DNA of 12,966 nt from a virus. The notes under the pieces were generated by a model, which saw only the letters and a list, made by a program, of their open reading frames with translations, made no database searches and was not told the origin of the DNA. The translations under genes and the position numbers were made by a program. The stretch lies in UHGV virus genome UHGV-0144896; one strand, written 5' to 3'. Below, in pieces: positions 504-12,725 of this stretch (positions are counted from its first letter, which is position 1; the number at the start of each line of letters is the position of its first letter).

Positions 504-676
504 TTCCTCGCACGATGTCTTAGCCACCGGATATCCCACAGGTGAGCCGTGTAGTTGAAGGTTTTTACGTCAGATTCTTTTGGGATTGGCTTGCGTTTAT
601 TTCTGGAGCGTTTCGTTGGAAGGTATTTGCAGTTTTCGCAGATGATGTCGGTGATACTTCGTCGCTGTCGTCTCAT
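500..676 (-). CDS. ninE: NinE-like small basic protein (58 aa)
   Basis: Not in the ORF track (<60 aa). ATG at 676..674 overlaps the NinC stop as ATGA. Translation is [58 protein letters not shown], ending at TGA 502..500. Matches my recollection of lambda NinE. Confidence 0.55.
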
Positions 677-1518
677 GCAGCATCCTCAAAATTAAATCCA
701 AGCTGACATGAAAATGCTTCACATGATTCAGAACACGAACCTGAATCATACTGTCGCATTGATGTCATTCTTGAGGCTAACTCATCTCTTGATATATCAC
801 TAAACAAGGCAATCAGTGATTTAAGTGTATTATTCCCTCGATACATAACCGGTTCCTTTCCTGTTTTTATTTCTGTATCAAGGATGTTGATAAATGCATC
901 TGCAAGTTCTGGCTCATCCATGGCTGCCAGCGCCACCTTTTGCATACTTTTTTTTATGCAGAAAACACAATTACCAAGATGCTCCTGTATGCCAAGATCA
1001 AACTTCTGCTCACTCCACCAATCAAGCACATCCTGTTTTTCAAAATCGCTTATATCAGCCAGGTACCGAAAACCATTAGCCCTTTTAAGCCTGTTTGGTT
1101 CATCTGTGCGAATGCCAAGCCATGTGATGAAATTTCCTTTCCCAAACTTTTCCTGACAATATTTGGTGAATGGAACAGACTTCATTCTGTCGGTACAGAA
1201 CGCACCGCCGATATATGGATGTCCGTATTTATTCAACATCCTTTTCCACGGTATAAGATCTGGACCAATATCATTGACACCTATCTCTTCATAACTACTG
1301 GCCTTCCCCATTTCTGGATTAGGTATTACACGAAGGCAATGTAAGTCTATTTTCCAGTTACTGACGATATTTCGGATGAACTCATATGTTTTAGGGTGCT
1401 CTGCCCCTGTATCCATGAAAACGTAATGCACGTCTTCACCTGCCTGTCGCTTTTGCTCCATTAGCCAGAGCAAATATGCTGACGTCCTGCCACCGGAGAA
1501 ACTAACGACATTTATCAT
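673..1518 (-). CDS. ninC: NinC-like protein, PAPS reductase / adenine-nucleotide alpha-hydrolase family
   Basis: Track ORF 673..1578, trimmed to the ATG at 1518..1516, which overlaps the NinB stop as ATGA. N-terminus [17 protein letters not shown] carries a PP-loop SGGxxS motif typical of the PAPS reductase family. Size (281 aa) and position after ninB match lambda NinC (orf290). Confidence 0.7.
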
Positions 1519-1955
1519 GCAGCCCTGTCTCCCCATCTCGCTTTCCACTCCAGAGCCAGTCGCGCTTCGTCTGACCACTTAACGCCACGTTCTGTACCGA
1601 ATGCCTGTATAAGCTCTAATAGCTCCGCAAATTCGCTTACACGCATCCTGCTGGTTGACTGGCCTATTACCACAAAGCCATTCCCGGCAAGGTTAGGAAC
1701 AACGTCCTGCTGCTTTAATGCTGCGGTAAACACACACTTCCAGCTTTCTGCATCCAGCCAGCGACCATGCCATTCAACCTGACGAGAGACGTCACCAAGG
1801 CAAGCCCAAAGCTTCCGATTCTGGTCTAAGCTGCGGTTGCGCTCCTGAATGATCACTACGATTGGCTTGGTTGGGTCTGGAAGAATTTGCTGTACCGCGT
1901 GAATAGCGTTTTGCTGATGTGCTGGAGATCGAATTTCAAAGGTTAGTTTTTTCAT
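1515..1955 (-). CDS. ninB: NinB recombination protein (Orf-family recombination mediator)
   Basis: Track ORF 1515..1973 begins at a TTG; the first ATG is at 1955..1953 and is preceded by a strong SD (GGGAGAGGGAAG). This gives 146 aa starting MKKLTFEIRSPAHQQNAIHAVQQILPDPTKP, which matches lambda NinB (orf146) closely from memory. Confidence 0.85.
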   Translation of the reverse strand: MKKLTFEIRSPAHQQNAIHAVQQILPDPTKPIVVIIQERNRSLDQNRKLWACLGDVSRQVEWHGRWLDAESWKCVFTAALKQQDVVPNLAGNGFVVIGQSTSRMRVSEFAELLELIQAFGTERGVKWSDEARLALEWKARWGDRAA

Positions 1956-3405: not shown

Positions 3406-4349
3406 GCAATCCCCCTGTCTGCAAACTTCCCTTCCCGTACTCCCGTTAACGAATCTTCCCTCAGCAGGTAATCAAAATCTGCCGTCCAGCCAGTGTCGTT
3501 GTCTCCGAAGTAAAACGGCTTGGCCTGATGTACAAACGCCCTGACATACGCTCTGAAACCGTCCACGTTTGGCGTTTTCAGTTGCGGGATGATTTTCTTC
3601 AGGCGGCGTTTGCGTTTCTCGTTGACCGCAACAGCGTGTGGCAGTCTGTCACCGACTTCGGTGTTGTAGGCGTTAAGGAAGGATTCGTAGTCGATGCGTT
3701 CTGCCTTGCGACGTTCAGGCTTAACCTGCCCATCGCCGCCCCCATTGGGGGGTAGGGGGGTATTATTTATATTCTTGTTAATACCTTCTTGTTCATGATG
3801 TGCGGTTGTTTGTGCGACATCATGTGCGGTTGTTTGTGCGGCATGTACTCTGAAAGCCGCGCCATTACTGGCTTCGTCATGTGCGGCATCATGTGCGGTT
3901 GTTTGTGCGGCTTCATGTGCGGGTGAATCGTCCATTTTTTGAGCATATTCATGGTAATTTGTGATGGTAATCACACGACCTTTTTGCTTCTCTCCATCAA
4001 TGGTGATCATCCCCTCTTTCACAAAAACCTGAAGCATCCGCTCAACCTGATCGCGGCTTGCTGGCTTGCCATGCCTGTCGCATAACTGAAGACCTAAATC
4101 AGCTGCTGTCACAACCAGTTGACCGGGTTGCAGATGCCATTCATGACCTTTGAAATTCGCTTTGTATGGCTTTCTGGCGGCATTCAGGAGAAGGTTTTCC
4201 CACAGGGTGCGAAGATAAACATCTTTCGCCCATGACTGTTTCAGAATGCTCCGGTACAACGGAATGTAACCAGTTTTCTGGTTCTCCATCCTGTTGCTCC
4301 TGCGCTCGTGTGCGGCGCTGAAATCGTAGATTTTTGCTGTGTTGCTCAT
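3402..4349 (-). CDS. Replication initiator protein, lambda O-like / P22 gene 18-like
   Basis: 315-aa ORF starting [10 protein letters not shown], similar to the lambda O N-terminus. The central region has repeated peptide segments ([27 protein letters not shown]) encoded by DNA iterons. Position is between cII and the helicase. Confidence 0.75.
3760..3925. repeat. Putative origin of replication: iteron array plus adjacent AT-rich tract inside the O-like gene
   Basis: At least four direct copies of a ~19-20 bp unit (catgtgcggttgtttgtgcg and variants; TGTGCGG core) lie between ~3795 and 3925. An AT-rich stretch (tattatttatattcttgttaatacc) and a G-tract lie at 3735..3795. Same architecture as lambda ori within O. 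Confidence 0.6.
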
Positions 4350-4351
4350 AA

Positions 4352-4624
4352 CTACCTGCCTTGACGAAAGACCTTAAGAACATCGTTAAACTGACTTACG
4401 GATATGTCTTCTTTGAGCAGCTTTTCCAGAAATGCGTTTGGAATGAACGTATATCCATCCTCTTTTGGTAGAGACGGGAGCAACGCCCTCGCCTCAGCCT
4501 TCAGAAGCTCAGTTCTGGCAACTTTCACAAAAGAGATTTGAGTTCTTTCATCAATGGAACGAAGGAAGCGCAAACGCTTAGCTTCTTTGTGTGTATCAGG
4601 TGGATTAAAGCCTTTGTTTCGCAT
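4352..4624 (-). CDS. Hypothetical protein (90 aa) between cII and the replication initiator
   Basis: Track ORF 4352..4789, trimmed to the ATG at 4624..4622 with a GAGG SD 8 nt upstream; the longer form would overlap cII by ~140 nt. Stop at 4352 is 2 nt from the O-like ATG. No family recognised. Confidence 0.45.
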   Translation of the reverse strand: MRNKGFNPPDTHKEAKRLRFLRSIDERTQISFVKVARTELLKAEARALLPSLPKEDGYTFIPNAFLEKLLKEDISVSQFNDVLKVFRQGR

Positions 4625-4646
4625 ATAATTACCTCGTTGGATGTTG

Positions 4647-4943
4647 TTAAAATTCCATCTGGATTTGTTCAGAACGCTCGGTTGCCGCCGGGCGTTTTTT
4701 ATTGGTGAGTCCATCAAGCGCATACTTAAAAGCCCTGCTAATCGGACTGATGTCTGATGCCATTCCGAAAGCACACAAGACCGAAGCAATAAATCTCCAG
4801 TCCGTTCTGCTTATCTTCGATTCATGACAGCCAATCATCTTTGCCAGACCGCGCTGGGTAAGCGTTGACAGGTTGATGAGTAAATCAGTTTCAGCGCGAT
4901 CAATTTCTCGCTGTGTTGGCTTGCTGTAGCTTGCTTGTGCCAT
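4647..4943 (-). CDS. cII: Transcriptional activator CII (lambda cII / P22 c1 homologue)
   Basis: 98 aa. C-terminus LTNKKRPAATERSEQIQMEF matches the lambda CII C-terminus from memory. Central HTH-like segment TQRGLAKMIGCHESKISR. AGGAAA SD upstream of ATG 4943. Confidence 0.8.
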   Translation of the reverse strand: MAQASYSKPTQREIDRAETDLLINLSTLTQRGLAKMIGCHESKISRTDWRFIASVLCAFGMASDISPISRAFKYALDGLTNKKRPAATERSEQIQMEF

Positions 4944-4976
4944 TTGTTAATTTTCCTATATTGATATTGAGTTATA

Positions 4977-5001
4977 GCGGCACACCCAATGGATTTGCCG
5001 C
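4977..5001 (-). terminator. Hairpin in the tR1 position (possible rho-dependent terminator)
   Basis: 6-bp perfect stem (gcggca / tgccgc) with a 13-nt loop between nutR and the cII start. No U-tract follows on the minus strand, so any termination would be rho-dependent as for lambda tR1. Weak call. Confidence 0.3.
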
Positions 5002-5011
5002 TGATGTTTGC

Positions 5012-5052
5012 TCACCCGGTTAGAGGTGAAAGGCCAGAACTGTTAAAGAGCA
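5012..5052 (-). promoter_or_regulatory. nutR site (boxA plus boxB hairpin), phi21-type
   Basis: Minus-strand boxA TGCTCTTTAACA (5041..5052) lies immediately downstream of the cro stop. It is followed by a hairpin tcacc-TCTAACCG-ggtga (5012..5029) that shares the CTAACCG loop with the nutL hairpin at 6160..6179. Confidence 0.55.
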
Positions 5053-5058
5053 ATTTGC

Positions 5059-5244
5059 TTATGCCGCTTGGCGGTAAGCACTTTCTTGATACTTCAGGGC
5101 GCCAGCTGTAACGATTTCCAATCGATAGGCGTCTTTCTCTGGGATAACTTCTTTCCACTGAGAGACTGCTGCATCGCTAATGCCTAGTGCTTTAGCAACA
5201 GCACGCTGGGTTCCGAAGTGGTCAATAACATCTTTTTTGTACAT
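5059..5244 (-). CDS. cro: Cro repressor, P22-type
   Basis: 61 aa, MYKKDVIDHFGTQRAVAKALGISDAAVSQWKEVIPEKDAYRLEIVTAGALKYQESAYRQAA. Near-identical to my recollection of P22 Cro. HTH QRAVAKALGISDAAVSQW. Divergent from the repressor gene. Confidence 0.85.
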   Translation of the reverse strand: MYKKDVIDHFGTQRAVAKALGISDAAVSQWKEVIPEKDAYRLEIVTAGALKYQESAYRQAA

Positions 5245-5324
5245 AGACTCGCTCCGAAATTAAAGAACACTTAAATTATCCACCAAAGGAATCTTAAGTC
5301 AAGTTTATTTAAGATGTCTTAACT
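5245..5324. promoter_or_regulatory. OR operator region with divergent PR / PRM promoters (P22-type operators)
   Basis: Three 18-bp sites fit the P22 operator pattern ANTNAAG-N4-CTTNANT: 5259..5276 (attaaagaacacttaaat, perfect palindrome), 5282..5299 (accaaaggaatcttaagt, one mismatch) and 5307..5324 (atttaagatgtcttaact). The last abuts the repressor ATG. Confidence 0.7.
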
Positions 5325-5975
5325 ATGAATACACAACTGATGGGTGAGCGTATTCGCGCTCGCAGAAAAGAACTCAAGATTAGGCAGGCTGCCCTTGGCA
5401 AGATGGTTGGCGTGTCTAATGTTGCTATTTCCCAATGGGAGCGATCTGAAACTGAGCCCAATGGCGAAAACCTATTGGCCTTAGCCAAGGCTTTGCAGTG
5501 CTCCCCTGATTACCTGTTGAAAGGAGAGGATAGTCTTTCAAACATTGCCTATCACAGCAGGCATGATCCAAGAGGTTCGTATCCTCTAATTAGTTGGGTA
5601 AGCGCAGGATGTTGGATGGAAGCTGTAGAGCCATATCATAGGCGTGCAATAGATAACTGGTACGACACAACGGTAGATTGTTCTGAAGACTCTTTTTGGC
5701 TCGATGTTAAAGGCGACTCAATGACTGCCCCGGCAGGACTGAGTATTCCTGAGGGGATGATTATTCTCGTCGACCCAGAAGTCGAACCACGTAATGGAAA
5801 GCTGGTAGTCGCCAAACTTGAAGGAGAAAACGAGGCGACATTCAAAAAGTTAGTTATTGATGCCGGTAGAAAATTCCTGAAACCACTCAATCCACAATAC
5901 CCAATGATTGAAATCAATGGGAACTGTAAAATCATTGGCGTTGTCGTTGATGCCAAGCTAGCAAACCTTCCTTAA
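5325..5975 (+). CDS. c2: Prophage repressor C2 (P22 c2-like), LexA/S24-type self-cleaving repressor
   Basis: 216 aa. N-terminal HTH (QAALGKMVGVSNVAISQWERSE) and a C-terminal S24 peptidase-like domain with GDSM (Ser) and a downstream Lys. Very similar to P22 C2 from memory. Confidence 0.9.
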   Translation: MNTQLMGERIRARRKELKIRQAALGKMVGVSNVAISQWERSETEPNGENLLALAKALQCSPDYLLKGEDSLSNIAYHSRHDPRGSYPLISWVSAGCWMEAVEPYHRRAIDNWYDTTVDCSEDSFWLDVKGDSMTAPAGLSIPEGMIILVDPEVEPRNGKLVVAKLEGENEATFKKLVIDAGRKFLKPLNPQYPMIEINGNCKIIGVVVDAKLANLP

Positions 5976-6139: not shown

Positions 6140-6179
6140 GCTCTTTAACATCGACGGACTCTCAACCTAACCGTTGAGA
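6140..6179 (+). promoter_or_regulatory. nutL site (boxA plus boxB hairpin), phi21-type
   Basis: boxA GCTCTTTAACA at 6140..6150, then a perfect 7-bp stem hairpin tctcaac-CTAACC-gttgaga at 6160..6179. Located between PL and the N start. Confidence 0.55.
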
Positions 6180-6289
6180 CCAGAACTTGAGTGGTTTTGG
6201 GGATGGCGCGAATTGCAGCTGCAAGACAGCGATCGAGAAGATAAGCACCTCGACGCGTCATGCGCCAAAGCCACTTAAAGGAGACCATC

Positions 6290-6595
6290 ATGGTAACCAT
6301 TGTCTGGAAAGAATCCAAAGGTACGGCAAAAAGCCGCTACAAAGCTCGCAGAGCAGAACTTATTGCCGAGCGACGCAGTAATGAAGCACTGGCGCGAAAA
6401 ATTGCGCTAAAGCTCTCTGGTTGCGTCAGAGCAGACAAAGCAGCATCACTAGGAAGCCTTTGCTGCAAGAAGAAAGAAGAAGTCGTTCGAAAAAATAGAA
6501 GTATTTATTACAAGGATTCAAACCCATTAGGAAACAAAATACATGCAGTCCAAAAAATAAAATTGTACAGTAAACCACCGTACGGTGCTTATTGA
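6290..6595 (+). CDS. N: Antitermination protein N (phi21-type arginine-rich motif)
   Basis: Track ORF 6260..6595, trimmed to ATG 6290 with an AAAGGAG SD 6 nt upstream. The N-terminal arginine-rich motif GTAKSRYKARRAELIAERR matches the phi21 N boxB-binding peptide as I recall it. ~101 aa, first gene after PL/nutL. Confidence 0.75.
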   Translation: MVTIVWKESKGTAKSRYKARRAELIAERRSNEALARKIALKLSGCVRADKAASLGSLCCKKKEEVVRKNRSIYYKDSNPLGNKIHAVQKIKLYSKPPYGAY

Positions 6596-6597
6596 GT

Positions 6598-6936
6598 ATG
6601 CTTATGGTGAAAAAGACTATTTATGTTAATCCCGACCACGGACAAAATAGAAAAGTATCTGATAGAGGTCTTACATCTCGAGACAGGAGGAGAATAGCGA
6701 GATGGGAAAAGAGGATAGCATATGCATTAAAAAACGGTGTAACACCTGGCTTTAATGCTATAGATGACGGTCCTGAATATAAGATTAATGAAGACCCAAT
6801 GGACAAAGTTGACAAAGCATTAGCAACACCATTTCCTCGCGATGTTGAAAAAATTGAAGATGAAAAATATGAGGATGTAATGCACAGGGTTGTTAACCAC
6901 GCTCACCAACGAAATCCAAATAAAAAATGGTCATAG
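6598..6936 (+). CDS. Hypothetical hydrophilic protein (~113 aa), AT-rich accessory gene
   Basis: Track ORF 6592..6936 starts at a TTG; the first ATG is at 6598, another at 6604. No clear SD, so it may be coupled to the N stop at 6595. Visibly more AT-rich than the flanking genes and followed directly by a strong terminator. No family recognised. Confidence 0.5.
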   Translation: MLMVKKTIYVNPDHGQNRKVSDRGLTSRDRRRIARWEKRIAYALKNGVTPGFNAIDDGPEYKINEDPMDKVDKALATPFPRDVEKIEDEKYEDVMHRVVNHAHQRNPNKKWS

Positions 6937-6958
6937 CCCACTTCGGTGGGTTTTTTAT
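6937..6958 (+). terminator. Intrinsic terminator (tL1-like)
   Basis: cccac-ttcg-gtggg stem-loop followed by TTTTTTATT, immediately after the stop at 6936. Confidence 0.65.
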
Positions 6959-7072
6959 TGTCTGAACTAACCGAATTTACTACAGCAAACCACGCAGTGA
7001 AATGGGCGTGACTTGTGTTGGTCGCCAGAAAATGAAATTAGGCAGCAAACCACTTATTTGAGAGGAATTAAT

Positions 7073-7696
7073 ATGTCATCAATCCGCTTAACAACGAGTA
7101 TGAAAGAGAAAATCGCTCGTAACGCTTTAATTAAATCTGGGGTTTTCACTGAGCTTGAAGAAGTAACAAAGTTAAAGAACCAGCTTGCACTTGACGCCAG
7201 AGTTGTTGTGTTTGGCGGTAAAAAGAAAACTGAGGAAGTGGATCAGTTATCATCCAAGTTAATGGCTATAAGCGAAGAACTTGAAAAGCTGGGATGTTCA
7301 TTTTACTCATGCGATGCCCGTTCAACTTCAATTTATCTGACTGTATCTGGCAGAAGGGTTGGCTGGTATTCATATGGGAAAGACGGCAACGGCGAAGATA
7401 TATTGCTCCCTACTCCGACCAAAGATAAATGCATGTTTAGCGCAGAACACGAAATAACAAAAAGGTTTGATGAAATCTGCGCATTGCAACAAAAACTTGA
7501 AGCCAAGAAAAAGGATATCGAATCAAATGTATGGGCTGCTTTGAACTCAGTCACAACAGTTAAGCGACTTATTGAAGTTTGGCCTGAAAGCAAAGAGTTG
7601 CTACCAAAAGAAGCAGATAAAGCAAGTACAGCACTTCCTGCTTTACGGGTAGAAGATTTGAATAAGATGATTGGACTTCCTTCCGAGGTCGCATAA
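7073..7696 (+). CDS. Hypothetical protein (207 aa), AT-rich accessory gene in the PL operon
   Basis: Track ORF 7013..7696, trimmed to ATG 7073 with a GAGG SD 7 nt upstream. Hydrophilic, lysine/glutamate-rich, with no obvious transmembrane segment, so it is unlikely to be SieB. Bracketed by terminators at 6937..6958 and 7831..7856. No family recognised. Confidence 0.5.
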   Translation: MSSIRLTTSMKEKIARNALIKSGVFTELEEVTKLKNQLALDARVVVFGGKKKTEEVDQLSSKLMAISEELEKLGCSFYSCDARSTSIYLTVSGRRVGWYSYGKDGNGEDILLPTPTKDKCMFSAEHEITKRFDEICALQQKLEAKKKDIESNVWAALNSVTTVKRLIEVWPESKELLPKEADKASTALPALRVEDLNKMIGLPSEVA

Positions 7697-7740
7697 TCGT
7701 CCTTTATTTTTGGCATAAACAACAGAATAAACACTGCACT

Positions 7741-7768
7741 GTGTATTCATTCCAATGAGTGAATACAC
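7741..7768. repeat. Perfect 9-bp inverted repeat with 10-nt spacer
   Basis: gtgtattca (7741..7749) and tgaatacac (7760..7768) are exact reverse complements; the pairing extends to 11 bp with one T/G position. Intergenic, not followed by a T-run. Confidence 0.5.
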
Positions 7769-7830
7769 GGAGCAATGTCGCTCGTAACTAAACAGGAGCC
7801 GACTTGTTCTGATTATTGGAAATCTTCTTT

Positions 7831-7856
7831 GCCCTCCAGTGTGAGGGCTTTTTTAT
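7831..7856 (+). terminator. Intrinsic terminator upstream of cIII (tL2-like)
   Basis: gccctc-cagtgt-gagggc stem-loop followed by TTTTTTAT. Confidence 0.6.
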
Positions 7857-7920
7857 ATGCATACCAATAACGCTTCACTCGAGGCGTTTTCGTTATGCAA
7901 TCAAATATAAGGAGTTACCC

Positions 7921-8055
7921 ATGATGCACTTTCAGCTCGCGGGTAGCGGCGTCATGTCCGCTTTCTACCCGCACGAATCTGAATTATCACGCCGAGTTAA
8001 ACAATTAATCAGAGCAGCAAAGAAACAACTGGAGGCGTTATGCGCAATGAAATAG
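7921..8055 (+). CDS. cIII: CIII-like protein (lambda cIII / P22 c3 homologue, FtsH inhibitor)
   Basis: Track ORF 7816..8055, trimmed to ATG 7921 with an AAGGAG SD 6 nt upstream. The 44-aa product MMHFQLAGSGVMSAFYPHESELSRRVKQLIRAAKKQLEALCAMK resembles the lambda CIII core (..AGWPVAGCPSESLLERITRKLR..) from memory. Confidence 0.6.
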   Translation: MMHFQLAGSGVMSAFYPHESELSRRVKQLIRAAKKQLEALCAMK

Positions 8056-8359: not shown

Positions 8360-8448
8360 AGGTGTTCGCGTCTTTTTAAATGCGGCAAAGACTGAAGTAT
8401 TAAATCAGCGTTATTTCCTTGGGCCATGCCCATTCTGAGAACAAACAT

Positions 8449-9054
8449 ATGAGCAAAGAATTTTACGCAAGACTGGCAGCTATTCAGGAGAACTTGAACG
8501 CGCCAAAGAATCAGTACAACTCATTCGGTAAATATAAATACAGAAGCTGCGAAGACATTCTTGAAGGAGTTAAGCCGTTACTGAATGGCCTGTTTTTATC
8601 AATCAGCGATGAAGTTGTGTTGATTGGTGATCGGTATTACGTGAAAGCAACGGCAACTATTACCGATGGCGAAAACAGTCATACGGCAACCGCACTAGCA
8701 CGAGAGGAAGAAAGCAAGAAAGGAATGGATTCTGCACAAGTTACGGGAGCTACAAGCTCTTATGCACGCAAGTATTGCCTCAATGGTTTGTTCGGCATTG
8801 ATGATGCGAAAGATGCAGATACAGACGAGCATAAACATCAGCAGAACGCAGCAGCAAAGCAATCAAAACCATCACCTACATCTGAACAGGTTCTAAAAGC
8901 ATTCACTGACGCAGCAATGCAGAAAAACACCGTAGAAGAGCTTAAACAGGCGTTCGCCAAAGCGTGGAAGATGCTCGAAGGCACACCGGAGCAGCACAAA
9001 GCGCAGGACGTTTACAACATCAGACGAGGCGAATTAGAAGGAGCGGCAGCTTAA
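8449..9054 (+). CDS. erf: Erf-family single-strand annealing recombinase (P22 Erf-like)
   Basis: Track ORF 8419..9054 begins at a TTG; the first ATG at 8449 gives MSKEFYARLAAIQENLNAPKNQYNSFGKYKYRSCEDILEGVKPLL, close to P22 Erf from memory (~201 aa). The alternative start at 8419 cannot be excluded. Confidence 0.8.
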   Translation: MSKEFYARLAAIQENLNAPKNQYNSFGKYKYRSCEDILEGVKPLLNGLFLSISDEVVLIGDRYYVKATATITDGENSHTATALAREEESKKGMDSAQVTGATSSYARKYCLNGLFGIDDAKDADTDEHKHQQNAAAKQSKPSPTSEQVLKAFTDAAMQKNTVEELKQAFAKAWKMLEGTPEQHKAQDVYNIRRGELEGAAA

Positions 9055-9437
9055 TGGCACATTCGATTACTGTAAGACTAAACAAGCCCGCAAGAGAGTT
9101 TCAGGCCGGGGAAAATATCGGATTCAACATCCGTGCTGGCGTTCAGTATTACGATCGCCAGACAAAAAAGAAAGAATGGACAAACTACAGCGCCGTTGTA
9201 TTTGCCAAGCCGGGAGCGCAAGTGGATTACTACCGTAGTGTTCTTGTTGAAGGTGGCATTGTTGAAATTACCGGAGAAAACATCAGGGTTGATGTTTATC
9301 AGGGGCAAAATGGTCAATCAATCACTCTTGAATTACTGAATGCAAAGATTGGATTTGCAGCTTCAGGAAATGGCCCGCAGCAGCAAAGTAGTAACCAGCA
9401 GAACACTCCTGTATACGACGATTCCATCCCATTCTGA
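9054..9437 (+). CDS. SSB-like protein with C-terminal acidic DDSIPF tail (127 aa)
   Basis: Track ORF 8964..9437, trimmed to ATG 9054, which overlaps the erf stop as TAATG. The C-terminus ..NTPVYDDSIPF matches the canonical SSB tail (DDDIPF), preceded by a Gln/Gly-rich linker and a ~100-aa probable OB-fold. Confidence 0.5.
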   Translation: MAHSITVRLNKPAREFQAGENIGFNIRAGVQYYDRQTKKKEWTNYSAVVFAKPGAQVDYYRSVLVEGGIVEITGENIRVDVYQGQNGQSITLELLNAKIGFAASGNGPQQQSSNQQNTPVYDDSIPF

Positions 9438-9460
9438 TTCAGAAAAATAAGGATTTAATT

Positions 9461-9754
9461 ATGCCAGCGCCTCTGTATGGTGCGGATGACCCGCGCCGCT
9501 GTTCCGGCAATTCCGTATCGGAGGTGCTGGATAAATTCAGGAAAAACTACGACCGGATAATGTCTCTACCGCAGGAAACGAAAGAGGAAAAGGAATTTCG
9601 CCATTGTATATGGCTTGCAGAGAAAGAAGAACGCGAGAGAATTTACCAGACATCAATCCGACCATTCCGCAAAGCCACATATACCCACTTCCCTGAAATT
9701 GACCCGCGCCTGCGTAATTACCGCTCACGCTATGGCGCTATCAGTAATGACTGA
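9461..9754 (+). CDS. abc2: Anti-RecBCD protein, Abc2-like (97 aa)
   Basis: AAGGA SD upstream of ATG 9461. [26 protein letters not shown]... matches my recollection of P22 Abc2 in sequence and size, and sits downstream of erf as in P22. Unverified. Confidence 0.5.
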
Positions 9755-11924: not shown

Positions 11925-12725
11925 ATGACCATCCACTTTCACGGCAGCCCAATATGGGGGGATGAGCATGCCCCTACAGATATGCTGATTAAAGCCCTTT
12001 ACCGTGATGGTGGGGCTTTTGTTTCATTTGCCAGACCAGAGCAGATGAAAAAGATTGCCATGTTCCCTTGTGATATACGCCTTGATAACGGCGCTTTTAG
12101 CGACTGGATGAAAGCATTAAAGAAAGGCACTCCGGTAGACTGGAGTAAGAGACGAGCAAAATTCTACGACTTTGTTGGGAAGTGGTTCAGCAGAATTGAA
12201 TGGTTTCTTATACCTGACGTTATCGAAGGGACAGAGGCAGAAAACGACGAGCAGATTGAGTTGGTTCCTGATTGGCTAAAATCAAAAGCGGTTCCGGTCT
12301 GGCATACCGACGAATCAATTGAACGTCTTTTACGCCTTTCTAGCAAATTTGAATGGGTGGCGATTGGATGCTGCGGACCACACAGGCACATACGCTCTAA
12401 ATGGTGGGAACAGAGAATGGATGAAGTTTTCACTGAGCTTTATATCAATCGTAATTTGAAAGTGAAAATTCATGGTCTTCGAATGCTCGACGTGAGAGTT
12501 CTTGGTATGTATCCGTTCGCCAGTGCGGATTCTACTAATGTTGCTGTTAACGTACCGAAGACAGAGAAGCGATTTCCTGAGATTACCGACAAACTGGCAC
12601 GCACAGCTGTACTTCGCGCTGCTATTGAAAAGGTGCACCCGCCATCGATATCAGCATGGGTAGACAGAAAGATGAGAGAGCCGGCGCAAGCCGGTTTTTT
12701 ATTTGAATTCACCGACGCCGCTTAA
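11925..12725 (+). CDS. Hypothetical protein (266 aa); tentative TGT-fold (DpdA-like DNA-guanine transglycosylase) candidate
   Basis: Track ORF with a GGGGA SD-like sequence upstream. Several short motifs occur in the same order as catalytic motifs of bacterial tRNA-guanine transglycosylase: RDGGAFVSF / LDNGAFS (cf. TDSGGFQVF), AIGCCG (cf. AVGGLAVG), KIHGL (cf. YLMGVG) and FASADSTN (cf. MFDCVMPTRN). There is no C-terminal zinc domain. The product assignment is speculative. Confidence 0.6.
   Translation: MTIHFHGSPIWGDEHAPTDMLIKALYRDGGAFVSFARPEQMKKIAMFPCDIRLDNGAFSDWMKALKKGTPVDWSKRRAKFYDFVGKWFSRIEWFLIPDVIEGTEAENDEQIELVPDWLKSKAVPVWHTDESIERLLRLSSKFEWVAIGCCGPHRHIRSKWWEQRMDEVFTELYINRNLKVKIHGLRMLDVRVLGMYPFASADSTNVAVNVPKTEKRFPEITDKLARTAVLRAAIEKVHPPSISAWVDRKMREPAQAGFLFEFTDAA

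Follow-up and report, generated by a model that had tools for sequence, protein, structure and literature searches.

Nun and an Nmad5-family gene as probably independent accessory modules between N and cIII of an immunity-21 type lambdoid prophage

Layout of the N–cIII interval

The window, by which we mean the whole stretch of 12,966 nucleotides analysed here (virus genome UHGV-0144896), carries two ORFs between N and cIII: ORF1 at 6598..6936 (112 aa, ATG start) and ORF2 at 7073..7696 (207 aa, ATG start). Both had been described as hydrophilic in the initial annotation, and the GRAVY values of -1.13 and -0.31, respectively, confirmed this. The features referred to in the text are as follows, in window coordinates.

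673..1578: PAPS-reductase-like gene (PAPS-reductase homolog)
6140..6179, + strand: nutL of the phage 21 type, with boxA and the boxB hairpin (6160..6179), an exact match to boxB21
6290..6595, + strand: N antiterminator of the phage 21 type; residues 1-57 equal those of phage 21 N, and the diverged C-terminus is encoded by the nun leader
6478..6953, + strand: nun module, the HK022-homologous block comprising the nun leader, the gene and the stem of its terminator
6543..6571, + strand: putative nun promoter (-35 ATGCAG, 6543..6548; -10 TACAGT, 6566..6571), within the 3′ end of the N ORF
6598..6936, + strand: nun, 112 aa, a transcription-arrest and lambda-exclusion factor by homology (6ALG_N, 1HJI, phrog_5632)
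6935..6958, + strand: intrinsic terminator after nun, with a 7-bp stem (6935..6952), a 4-nt loop and a T run; -11.0 kcal/mol
6975..7900, + strand: Nmad5 module, a block common to lambdoid prophages as judged from blastn coverage
7073..7696, + strand: Nmad5-family gene, 207 aa (PF18757; phrog_1965, unknown function)
7735..7774, + strand: hairpin 3′ of the Nmad5 gene, without a T tract; -22.5 kcal/mol, z -6.6
7831..7856, + strand: intrinsic terminator ending the Nmad5 module, with a GC-rich 6-bp stem (7831..7848) and TTTTTT; -11.1 kcal/mol
7921..8055: cIII (Pfam cIII, E 7.8e-30)
11925..12725: TGT-like (DpdA-like) gene, homolog of phrog_887 'queuine tRNA-ribosyltransferase' (E 1.3e-102)

The two-gene tract lies in the most AT-rich part of the window, with a GC content of 39.85% against a mean of 46.1%. 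When GC was calculated over windows of the same length, as the initial annotation had proposed, 2.5% of them were as low as the tract, the minimum of 38.8% being found in the one starting at 6464. The shift is modest, as GC values of the same order were obtained for N (42%), kil (40%) and DUF4222 (40%). Together with the mosaic breakpoints described below, these values bear out the description of the interval as a variable, AT-rich and horizontally mobile slot for accessory genes.

The same slot is usually taken by ral and sieB in lambda and phage 21, with ral immediately after N in phage 21. Like the two genes found here, these are accessory, non-essential genes that are expressed early or in the lysogen. 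However, neither ORF resembled Ral or SieB in a Pfam scan carried to E 0.1, which assigned no family to ORF1 and only Nmad5 and a sub-threshold P4Ha_N match to ORF2. In addition, SieB has a membrane segment, whereas none was found in either ORF with a 19-residue Kyte-Doolittle window (maxima of 0.13 for nun and 0.61 for Nmad5), in agreement with the earlier remark on SieB.

A terminator had been predicted after each gene and both are present. The first directly adjoins the stop codon of nun. The second is separated from the Nmad5 stop codon by 135 nt, which include the much stronger hairpin at 7735..7774. None of 200 shuffled sequences folded as well as this hairpin, and it is retained in approximately 75 of the 81 loci that carry an Nmad5 gene at least 92% identical to the present one. 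An Rfam scan of the whole window gave one sub-threshold chance match, snoZ30, and the intergenic hairpin region was without any match. Homology to phage Kapi1 stops at 7847, inside the second terminator.

ORF1 is the exclusion factor Nun

ORF1 was identical to HK022 Nun (PDB 6ALG, chain N) at 108 of 109 residues (E 2.4e-71), the sole substitution being serine to histidine at residue 10 of the 109-aa form (S10H), and it matched phrog_5632, 'Nun-like transcription termination factor', with an E value of 2.3e-70. The arginine-rich motif is complete, as residues 22-47 are identical (26/26) to the Nun peptide in the boxB complex 1HJI. The C-terminus, ...HAHQRNPNKKWS, is also intact and contains H98, K106, K107 and W108, which are needed for Nun function (PMC5386594; important residues are also given in PMC4496710). 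Its end, ...VVNHAHQRNPNKKWS, is identical to 6ALG_N, so that the segment that arrests RNA polymerase is present, including the penultimate aromatic residue W108. At the DNA level, the homology to HK022, O276 and HK75 covers precisely 6478..6953, with 95.2% identity. By sequence, ORF1 is the well-studied exclusion factor Nun of HK022.

Both proteins had been left unrecognised in the initial annotation, which proposed the interval as its best candidate for an undescribed exclusion function. An exclusion function is indeed predicted, but it is not undescribed: the clear homology to characterised proteins that the initial annotation had set against its own proposal was found for ORF1, which is Nun, and applies partly to ORF2, which falls into Pfam family Nmad5, a family without an assigned function. 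A leading candidate for undescribed defence is thereby corrected to a mostly known system. Of the complete E. coli genomes, 220 of 5,426 carried nun. Because RefSeq and the Kapi1 record label it 'hypothetical protein', this widespread putative capacity for lambda exclusion is missed in inventories of prophages and defence systems.

Nun behind an intact N gene

As in HK022, nun occupies a PL-proximal position in a lambdoid prophage and is directly followed by a terminator, although the terminator stem differs by compensatory changes (CCCAC/GTGGG versus CCCGC/GCGGG in HK022). The upstream context is different. HK022 nun follows putL in a phage that lacks N and uses put RNA instead, whereas here nun follows an intact N gene of the phage 21 type. 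This arrangement, with nun 2 nt past the N stop codon, is found in the window, mEp235, mEpX1, Kapi1 and PA28-like Stx1 phages, placing nun directly behind N in N-dependent immunity-21 phages. The absence of the N replacement of HK022 concerns the context of HK022 and not the Nun protein. Moreover, the HK022 "nun leader" appears to be a 3′ remnant of an N gene, which bears on the origin of N-independent antitermination in HK022.

The PL-nutL region differed from that of phage 21, in which boxA-L and nutL are annotated, at one of 260 aligned positions. The product of the N gene is 80% identical to phage 21 N overall and identical over residues 1-57, and the DNA from 6478 onward is HK022-like, so that the last ~40 codons of N come from the nun leader. 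A 21-like nutR is located on the minus strand of the window, and a search of the window for a lambda-type boxB with up to three mismatches allowed found none. Judged from N21, the nut sites of the 21 type and the missing lambda boxB, the resident phage is of the immunity-21 type. Nun is reported to spare 21-type nut sites (Robert and colleagues, 1987). Because the N protein and nut sites of the resident phage have phage 21 specificity, Nun should arrest lambda-type invaders while sparing its own phage.

The O276 record annotates a 'nun gene promoter', and the window has the same two hexamers and the same spacer; the hexamers are nevertheless weak matches to the consensus and were not called by a consensus promoter scan. 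The 120-bp leader that contains the annotated promoter is the same in the window as in HK022, whose nun promoter was reportedly the subject of work by King and colleagues in 2000. Since the window does not differ in sequence from the nun promoter that GenBank annotates for HK022, nun is probably expressed from its own putative promoter without the need for N antitermination, contrary to the dependence on N considered earlier. The gene would therefore form a self-contained cassette of promoter, gene and terminator, essentially identical to that of HK022. Nun is made constitutively by the repressed HK022 prophage. The C-terminal segment of Nun acts as a wedge in RNA polymerase and halts its translocation, which would keep an incoming lambda-type phage from expressing its early genes. 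Because nun here lies directly behind N and PL, unlike in HK022, large amounts of Nun would be expected in lytic growth as well.

ORF2 belongs to the Nmad5 family

ORF2 matched Pfam PF18757 (Nmad5) over the entire profile (positions 1-206 of 206) with an E value of 1.3e-70 and 238.1 bits, the cut-off being 27, and its NCBI/RefSeq name is 'Nmad5 family putative nucleotide modification protein'. Its sequence is that of a member of a curated and already catalogued family, which has 2,246 representatives at 50% identity; NCBIfam had no models for either ORF. Nmad domains are reported to have been first defined by Iyer and colleagues in 2013. The Kapi1 record starts the gene at an in-frame TTG at 7013, but the homologs begin with MSSIRLT, so ATG 7073, which is preceded by GAGAGGA, is the real start. 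Homologs of Nmad5 also occur in virulent phages.

In an alignment of homologs, W170, P171, E172, N197 and G201 are invariant, and in a family alignment of 47 sequences only W, P and N remain so, all in the C-terminal WPE...DLN..IGLP region. ORF2 contains the motif of this region, T-x-K-[K/R]-L-I-x-x-W-P-E ... D-L-N-x-x-I-G-L-P. The confident AF2 model (pLDDT 85) comprises three long helices, a small sheet, one more long helix and, at the C-terminus, a small domain. It matched none of the solved folds with which it was compared, the family alignment showed no catalytic signature, and a search of the sequence against the PDB gave no match below E 0.46. Domain fusions offered no clue, as the long or distant members tested carry the Nmad5 domain alone. 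The near-neutral pI of 7.6 does not suggest direct DNA binding. Taken together, the Nmad5 product is soluble, near neutral and, in the model, largely helical, and no catalytic site could be recognised in it; an enzymatic role is unlikely.

Like most members of PF18757, a family that includes Yuavirus SN1 gp19 and Dhillonvirus SM_S22 CDS6, ORF2 is a single-domain protein of ~200 aa. In Dhillonvirus, the annotated Nmad5 (334 aa) is encoded antisense among head genes, whereas ORF2 lies in the PL operon, and ORF2 and the SM_S22 protein are only 31% identical over the C-terminal 100 residues.

nun and the Nmad5 gene are carried separately

The 81 loci with an Nmad5 gene at least 92% identical to that of the window were compared, including up to 10 kb of flanking DNA on each side. 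nun was present in eight of them, where the nun module was carried as a unit. The blastn coverage was 15 loci at position 6950, rose to 80-81 of the 81 across 7050-7724 and dropped after ~7850-7900, and the Stx phages matched 6969..7897. Mosaic breakpoints thus flank each gene, and nun and Nmad5 lie in separate homology blocks. Conversely, nun is found without an adjoining Nmad5 gene in mEpX1, HK022, HK75 and O276. The co-occurrence in 8 of 81 loci and the separate blocks led us to reject a conserved pair or a toxin-antitoxin-like cassette, and the two-gene cassette of the initial annotation does not hold. The interval is probably composed of two unrelated accessory modules of an immunity-21 lambdoid prophage, each mobile on its own, and not of a two-gene system, with nun being HK022 Nun and Nmad5, as a best guess, an early adaptor.

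Possible roles of Nmad5

A promoter scan of 6953–7072 found no promoter-like site for Nmad5 at the scan threshold. Its transcription therefore most likely starts at PL, as for a delayed-early gene, with N antitermination carrying RNA polymerase past the nun terminator.

The genes around Nmad5 were surveyed in 22 diverse clusters with 88 flanking ORFs, a sample that depended on the pattern WPE[ASV]xEL[LI]P and the content of IMG/VR and is therefore biased. The DUF2800/PD-(D/E)XK nuclease (7), the Enc34 ssDNA-binding protein (5) and DNA polymerase A (5) recurred, and none of the 88 ORFs encoded a modification enzyme. In N4-like phages the order is ThyX, Nmad5, exonuclease, primase, Sak4 and SSB; in Athena1, Nmad5 adjoins replication protein O, with RecT and ExoVIII nearby; and in the window it heads the stretch of kil, erf and abc2. 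The position among head genes in Dhillonvirus fits neither a replication-adaptor nor a modification model. We tentatively prefer to regard Nmad5 as a non-enzymatic adaptor or accessory of phage replication or recombination rather than a base-modifying enzyme, a role that is possible although somewhat short of an even chance. The proximity to replication genes is weak evidence and counts little, since the early regions of most phages carry replication and recombination genes.

The family name itself, used in Pfam and NCBI, points to another role, in which Nmad5 would be an accessory of base modification and act with the TGT-like and PAPS-reductase-like genes of the window, rendering the DNA resistant to restriction. 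Besides these two homologs in the window, this reading is favored by Yuavirus SN1, where Nmad5 is flanked by aGPT-Pplase1 and by the thymidylate synthase/hydroxymethylase of the thymidine hypermodification cluster, and by the N4-like phages, where it abuts ThyX. However, modification genes are linked to Nmad5 in SN1 but not in the lambdoid phages: among the 81 loci, the TGT-like gene was found in four and the PAPS-reductase-like gene in three, and Kapi1, with the same nun and Nmad5 genes (Nmad5 being identical), has neither. The link to these two genes was rejected for this reason; a look-up of the literature and PDB for the TGT-like gene gave nothing useful. Considering also the 0 of 88 flanking modification enzymes and the lack of a catalytic fold or conserved catalytic residues, the base-modification role appears improbable. 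A link to nucleotide metabolism may still exist, given the Yuavirus cluster and the thymidylate synthase adjacent in N4-like phages. For most members, this comparison suggests that the label "nucleotide modification protein" is misleading and that replication or recombination, or immune sensing by Tmn, are better leads.

Immune sensing is suggested by Dhillonvirus SM_S22, in which mutation of Nmad5 residue K296 allows escape from Tmn defence (PMC11846954). ORF2 R165 aligns with this residue, within the motif TVKRLIEVWPE. The Dhillonvirus gene is non-essential, and escape results from the point mutation and not from deletion, a pattern interpreted in that study as a possible gain of function (PMC11846954). 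The wild-type protein gives no protection from Tmn, whereas a separate anti-Tmn gene does, and the homolog appeared toxic when cloned (PMC11846954). By homology, Nmad5 may be a determinant of sensitivity to Tmn. It is rather unlikely, however, that the lambdoid protein is a conserved early factor at the interface of defence and counter-defence that either is monitored by Tmn (a KAP NTPase) or modulates it, and that acts on a partner in replication or recombination through its invariant WPE/DLN motif at the C-terminus. If this were true, Nmad5 would define a new class of phage proteins, without enzymatic activity, that link DNA replication with immune sensing, and 'nucleotide modification' would be the wrong name.

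An early inhibitor or decoy directed against a host immune system would suit the position of the gene, in the PL slot that holds ral in phage 21, as well as its likely early expression from PL, its small helical and non-enzymatic product and its presence in virulent phages; the non-essentiality and the Tmn escape by point mutation in Dhillonvirus (PMC11846954) are also consistent with such counter-defence. Nevertheless, no inhibitory activity is known and the Dhillonvirus wild type fails against Tmn. The breadth of the family and the conservation of its motif across unrelated phages fit a housekeeping partner better, and Nmad5 recurs inside replication modules, so that we consider counter-defence unlikely, if conceivable.

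It is hardly credible that Nmad5 is a prophage defence or exclusion gene, alone or with nun, as had been suggested for ORF2, although it occupies a variable AT-rich slot beside nun, a genuine exclusion gene, and the apparent toxicity of the cloned Dhillonvirus homolog (PMC11846954) is shared by some abortive-infection effectors. PADLOC-DB 2.0, searched to E 0.01, had no family for either ORF; Nun was unmatched too, and the database is therefore silent on Nun-type exclusion. Furthermore, no promoter-like site lies upstream of Nmad5, and between it and the nun promoter stands the nun terminator. Homologs are frequent both in phages that are strictly virulent and within replication modules, and nun accompanies it in just the eight loci noted above. 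The 'NMAD' domain of a validated DefensePredictor system was also considered and rejected, being Nmad2 (PF18753) and not Nmad5.

For the adaptor role that we prefer, as for the others, Kapi1 or mEp235 would be tractable genetic models. The Nmad5 gene is found in ~4% of complete E. coli genomes as well as in many Stx phages.

Layout of the early region

The window comes from a mosaic lambdoid prophage and holds its early region, in which ORF1 (nun, 112 aa) and ORF2 (the Nmad5 gene, 207 aa) lie between the N gene and cIII.

Genes and sites of the window
Minus strand: PAPS-reductase-like gene, ninB, DnaB-type helicase gene, O-type replication gene, cII, cro
5325..5975 (+): cI
Between cI and N (+): terminator, PL, nutL
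6290..6595 (+): N gene
6598..6936 (+): ORF1
7073..7696 (+): ORF2
7921..8055 (+): cIII
After cIII (+): kil, ERF recombinase gene, abc2, ead/Ea22-like gene
After the ead/Ea22-like gene (+): dATP/dGTP pyrophosphohydrolase-DUF551 gene, TGT-like gene

Both ORFs were found where the initial annotation had placed them. They are hydrophilic as described (GRAVY -1.13 for ORF1 and -0.31 for ORF2), and the membrane segment said to be absent from the 207-aa protein is absent from both. The AT-rich tract was borne out by windowed GC calculation: 6598..7696 has 39.85% GC versus 46.1% for the window, a value matched or undercut by only 2.5% of windows of this length, and the lowest value anywhere in the window (38.8%) starts at 6464. 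This compositional shift is modest and is common to N, kil and DUF4222. Each gene was also said to be followed by its own terminator; scanning found hairpins at 6935..6952 and 7831..7848, each of about -11 kcal/mol folding energy and followed by a T run, but the second lies 135 nt past the stop codon and not immediately after it. The proteins, previously unrecognised, are a classic, structurally solved exclusion factor (ORF1) and a member of a family that is catalogued but has no assigned function (ORF2). The finding holds up as a description and is, biologically, largely ordinary; both genes are already in published phage genomes, and the remaining interest lies in the N-nun arrangement and in what Nmad5 does.

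Over 6200..7847 the window shares 99.9% identity with phage vB_EcoP_Kapi1 and 97% with mEp235, and no complete E. coli genome spans more than 70% of the window at a single place. The Kapi1 identity stops at the stem of the terminator 3′ of Nmad5 (7847/7848), so this terminator coincides with a mosaic recombination junction. The recombination module (8419..9754) is of P22 type, with an ERF recombinase (Pfam E = 1.9e-44) and the anti-RecBCD protein Abc2 (6.1e-64). P22-type recombination, phage 21 immunity and HK022 nun in one phage indicate that the PL operon is highly mosaic.

ORF1 and the N-nun arrangement

Against PDB 6ALG chain N, named 'Transcription termination factor nun' and derived from HK022, the 112-aa ORF1 product is identical at 108 of 109 residues (E = 2.4e-71), and against the Nun peptide in the 1HJI boxB complex at 26/26. 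It also falls in PHROG 5632 (E = 2.3e-70), which is labelled 'Nun-like transcription termination factor'. By homology, ORF1 is Nun, the HK022 transcription-arrest factor that excludes lambda. The sole change from the crystallised HK022 protein, S10H, is outside both functional segments, and the arginine-rich motif and C-terminal H98, K106, K107 and W108, which Nun needs for function (PMC5386594; also PMC4496710), are all intact.

The HK022-like DNA block (6478..6953, 95% identity) takes in 120 bp 5′ of the nun ATG, where a 'nun gene promoter' is annotated in the GenBank record of phage O276. The promoter hexamers (6543..6548 and 6566..6571) are identical in the window, and the terminator stem shows compensatory changes relative to HK022. 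With the promoter and terminator in the same block, nun seems to form a promoter-gene-terminator cassette that probably does not need N antitermination, and the dependence on N proposed earlier is probably wrong. The gene is labelled 'hypothetical protein' in the Kapi1 record (Kapi1 8399..8737) and in RefSeq E. coli genomes (8/8 among the matches listed, out of 220 matching genomes).

Phage 21 has boxA-L and nutL annotated in its PL-nutL region, from which the window departs at 1 of 260 aligned positions. The N protein shares residues 1-57 exactly with N of phage 21, a stretch that holds the RNA-binding motif. A 21-type boxB is located at 6160..6179, and the minus strand carries a 21-like nutR downstream of cro. 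Robert et al. reportedly observed in 1987 that phage 21 nut sites are spared by Nun. Lambda boxB localises Nun (PMC5386594), and no lambda-type boxB was found in the window with three mismatches allowed. A lysogen would block lambda-type invaders, and the resident phage's own antitermination would be untouched.

The last ~40 codons of the N ORF lie in DNA that matches the HK022 'nun leader' at 95% identity (6478..6597). Since they still align to the C-terminus of phage 21 N (KK-EEV-RK...IYY...QKIKL-SKP), HK022 seems to keep a 3′ remnant of an N gene 5′ of nun, which suggests, from sequence comparison, that N-nun is the ancestral arrangement.

Distribution of nun and Nmad5

Co-occurrence was determined with the window's proteins as queries in 80 viral contigs encoding at least 92%-identical Nmad5, together with Kapi1.

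Occurrence in the Nmad5 loci
nun: 8/81
TGT-like gene: 4/81
PAPS-reductase-like gene: 3/81

Per-base coverage formed two separate blocks, a nun block (~6500..6950) in those 8 loci and an Nmad5 block (~6975..7900) in essentially all 81, and HK022, HK75, O276 and mEpX1 have nun without adjoining Nmad5. On these grounds, the idea of a conserved pair, which the initial annotation had put forward for checking, was rejected. Each gene is present in ~4% of complete E. coli genomes (nun in 220/5,426, Nmad5 in 211/5,426).

The TGT-like and PAPS-reductase-like genes flank the immunity region, one on each side. The former (TGT/DpdA-like; 11925..12725, +) matched phrog_887 'queuine tRNA-ribosyltransferase' (E = 1.3e-102) and nothing in Pfam, NCBIfam, PADLOC or PDB sequences; the latter (673..1578, -) is SspD/DndC/BrxP-like in PADLOC. 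They could be a DNA-modification pair; in the flanks examined of the 81 loci they are rare and never together.

The Nmad5 family

ORF2 is matched end to end by Pfam PF18757 (E = 1.3e-70, 238 bits versus a cut-off of 27), and on this profile match it is an Nmad5-family protein. It belongs to PHROG 1965 ('unknown function'), its close homologs are named 'Nmad5 family putative nucleotide modification protein' at NCBI, and neither PADLOC nor NCBIfam covers it with a model. Clustered at 50% identity, the family has 2,246 representatives, almost all of which stand alone at ~200 aa, and no further Pfam domain was found in long or distant members.

The AF2 model is confident (pLDDT 85, pTM 0.69), with three long helices (8-72), a small sheet (86-125) and a long helix (127-158), followed by a small helical C-terminal domain and, joined through a disordered linker (183-191), a conserved tail; in a viral structure library it retrieved nothing but other Nmad5 proteins, all uncharacterised. 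A 47-sequence family alignment has W, P and N as its sole invariant residues; the near-invariant ones group in the motif SVTT-KKLLE-WPE-ELLP...LPA...DLN-IGLP, and no catalytic-like constellation was seen. The protein is near-neutral (pI 7.6).

The Kapi1 Nmad5 CDS (Kapi1 8814..9497) begins at an in-frame TTG (window 7013); the conserved ATG, which has a Shine-Dalgarno sequence, lies 20 codons further downstream. In Escherichia phage SM_S22 (Dhillonvirus), the annotated 334-aa CDS (4296..5300, +) overlaps the opposite-strand head scaffolding gene (3683..4501, -) by ~200 bp, and the Pfam domain does not begin until residue 81; the N-terminal extension in the annotation is possibly over-called.

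Possible roles of Nmad5

In Yuavirus SN1 the gene lies within a thymidine hypermodification cluster, presumably the origin of the family name. Its order in two N4-like phages is DNA polymerase, ThyX, Nmad5, exonuclease, primase, Sak4, SSB; in Vibrio phage Athena1 it is followed by a replication initiator, with RecT and ExoVIII near, and in Dhillonvirus it is antisense among head genes. We grouped 80 further, more divergent loci into 22 clusters at 80% identity and scanned two ORFs per side against Pfam. The 88 flanking ORFs included DUF2800/PD-(D/E)XK nucleases (7), Enc34-type ssDNA-binding proteins (5), family-A DNA polymerases (5) and cI-type repressors or N proteins (4 to 5), and modification enzymes were absent from them. 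Several prophages have the gene first after the repressor, heading an operon with nuclease and SSB and mirroring its PL position in the window. These flanks and gene orders make replication/recombination functions the most consistent company of Nmad5. The neighbour sample is biased and this context evidence circumstantial, and we only tentatively, at somewhat below even chances, regard Nmad5 as a non-enzymatic replication or recombination accessory.

No sigma-70-like site was found between the nun terminator and the Nmad5 ATG, and the shared block starts only 25-100 bp 5′ of this ATG; the gene is therefore probably delayed-early. Transcription from PL would reach it past the nun terminator, aided by N. 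This pattern, together with the presence of the family in virulent phages, speaks against a role in defending the lysogen.

The only experimental study of Nmad5 found in the literature concerns Dhillonvirus escape from Tmn, a host defence system (PMC11846954); two other papers do no more than cite it. Escape mutants carry K296E in nmad5 (K216E in a shorter homolog), reversion restores Tmn sensitivity, deletion does not confer escape, and the gene is seemingly toxic when cloned (PMC11846954). SM_S22 K296 aligns with R165 of the window's Nmad5, within the family's most conserved motif. On homology alone, the lambdoid protein is thus a candidate Tmn determinant.

A hairpin (7735..7774, +) with a 14-bp perfect stem and no T tract after it (-22.5 kcal/mol, z = -6.6, 0/200 shuffles folding as well) lies 3′ of the Nmad5 stop codon and 5′ of the terminator. 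It might serve RNase III processing or mRNA stability, or be a palindrome bound by a protein; it has no match in Rfam and is kept in ~75 of the 81 loci.
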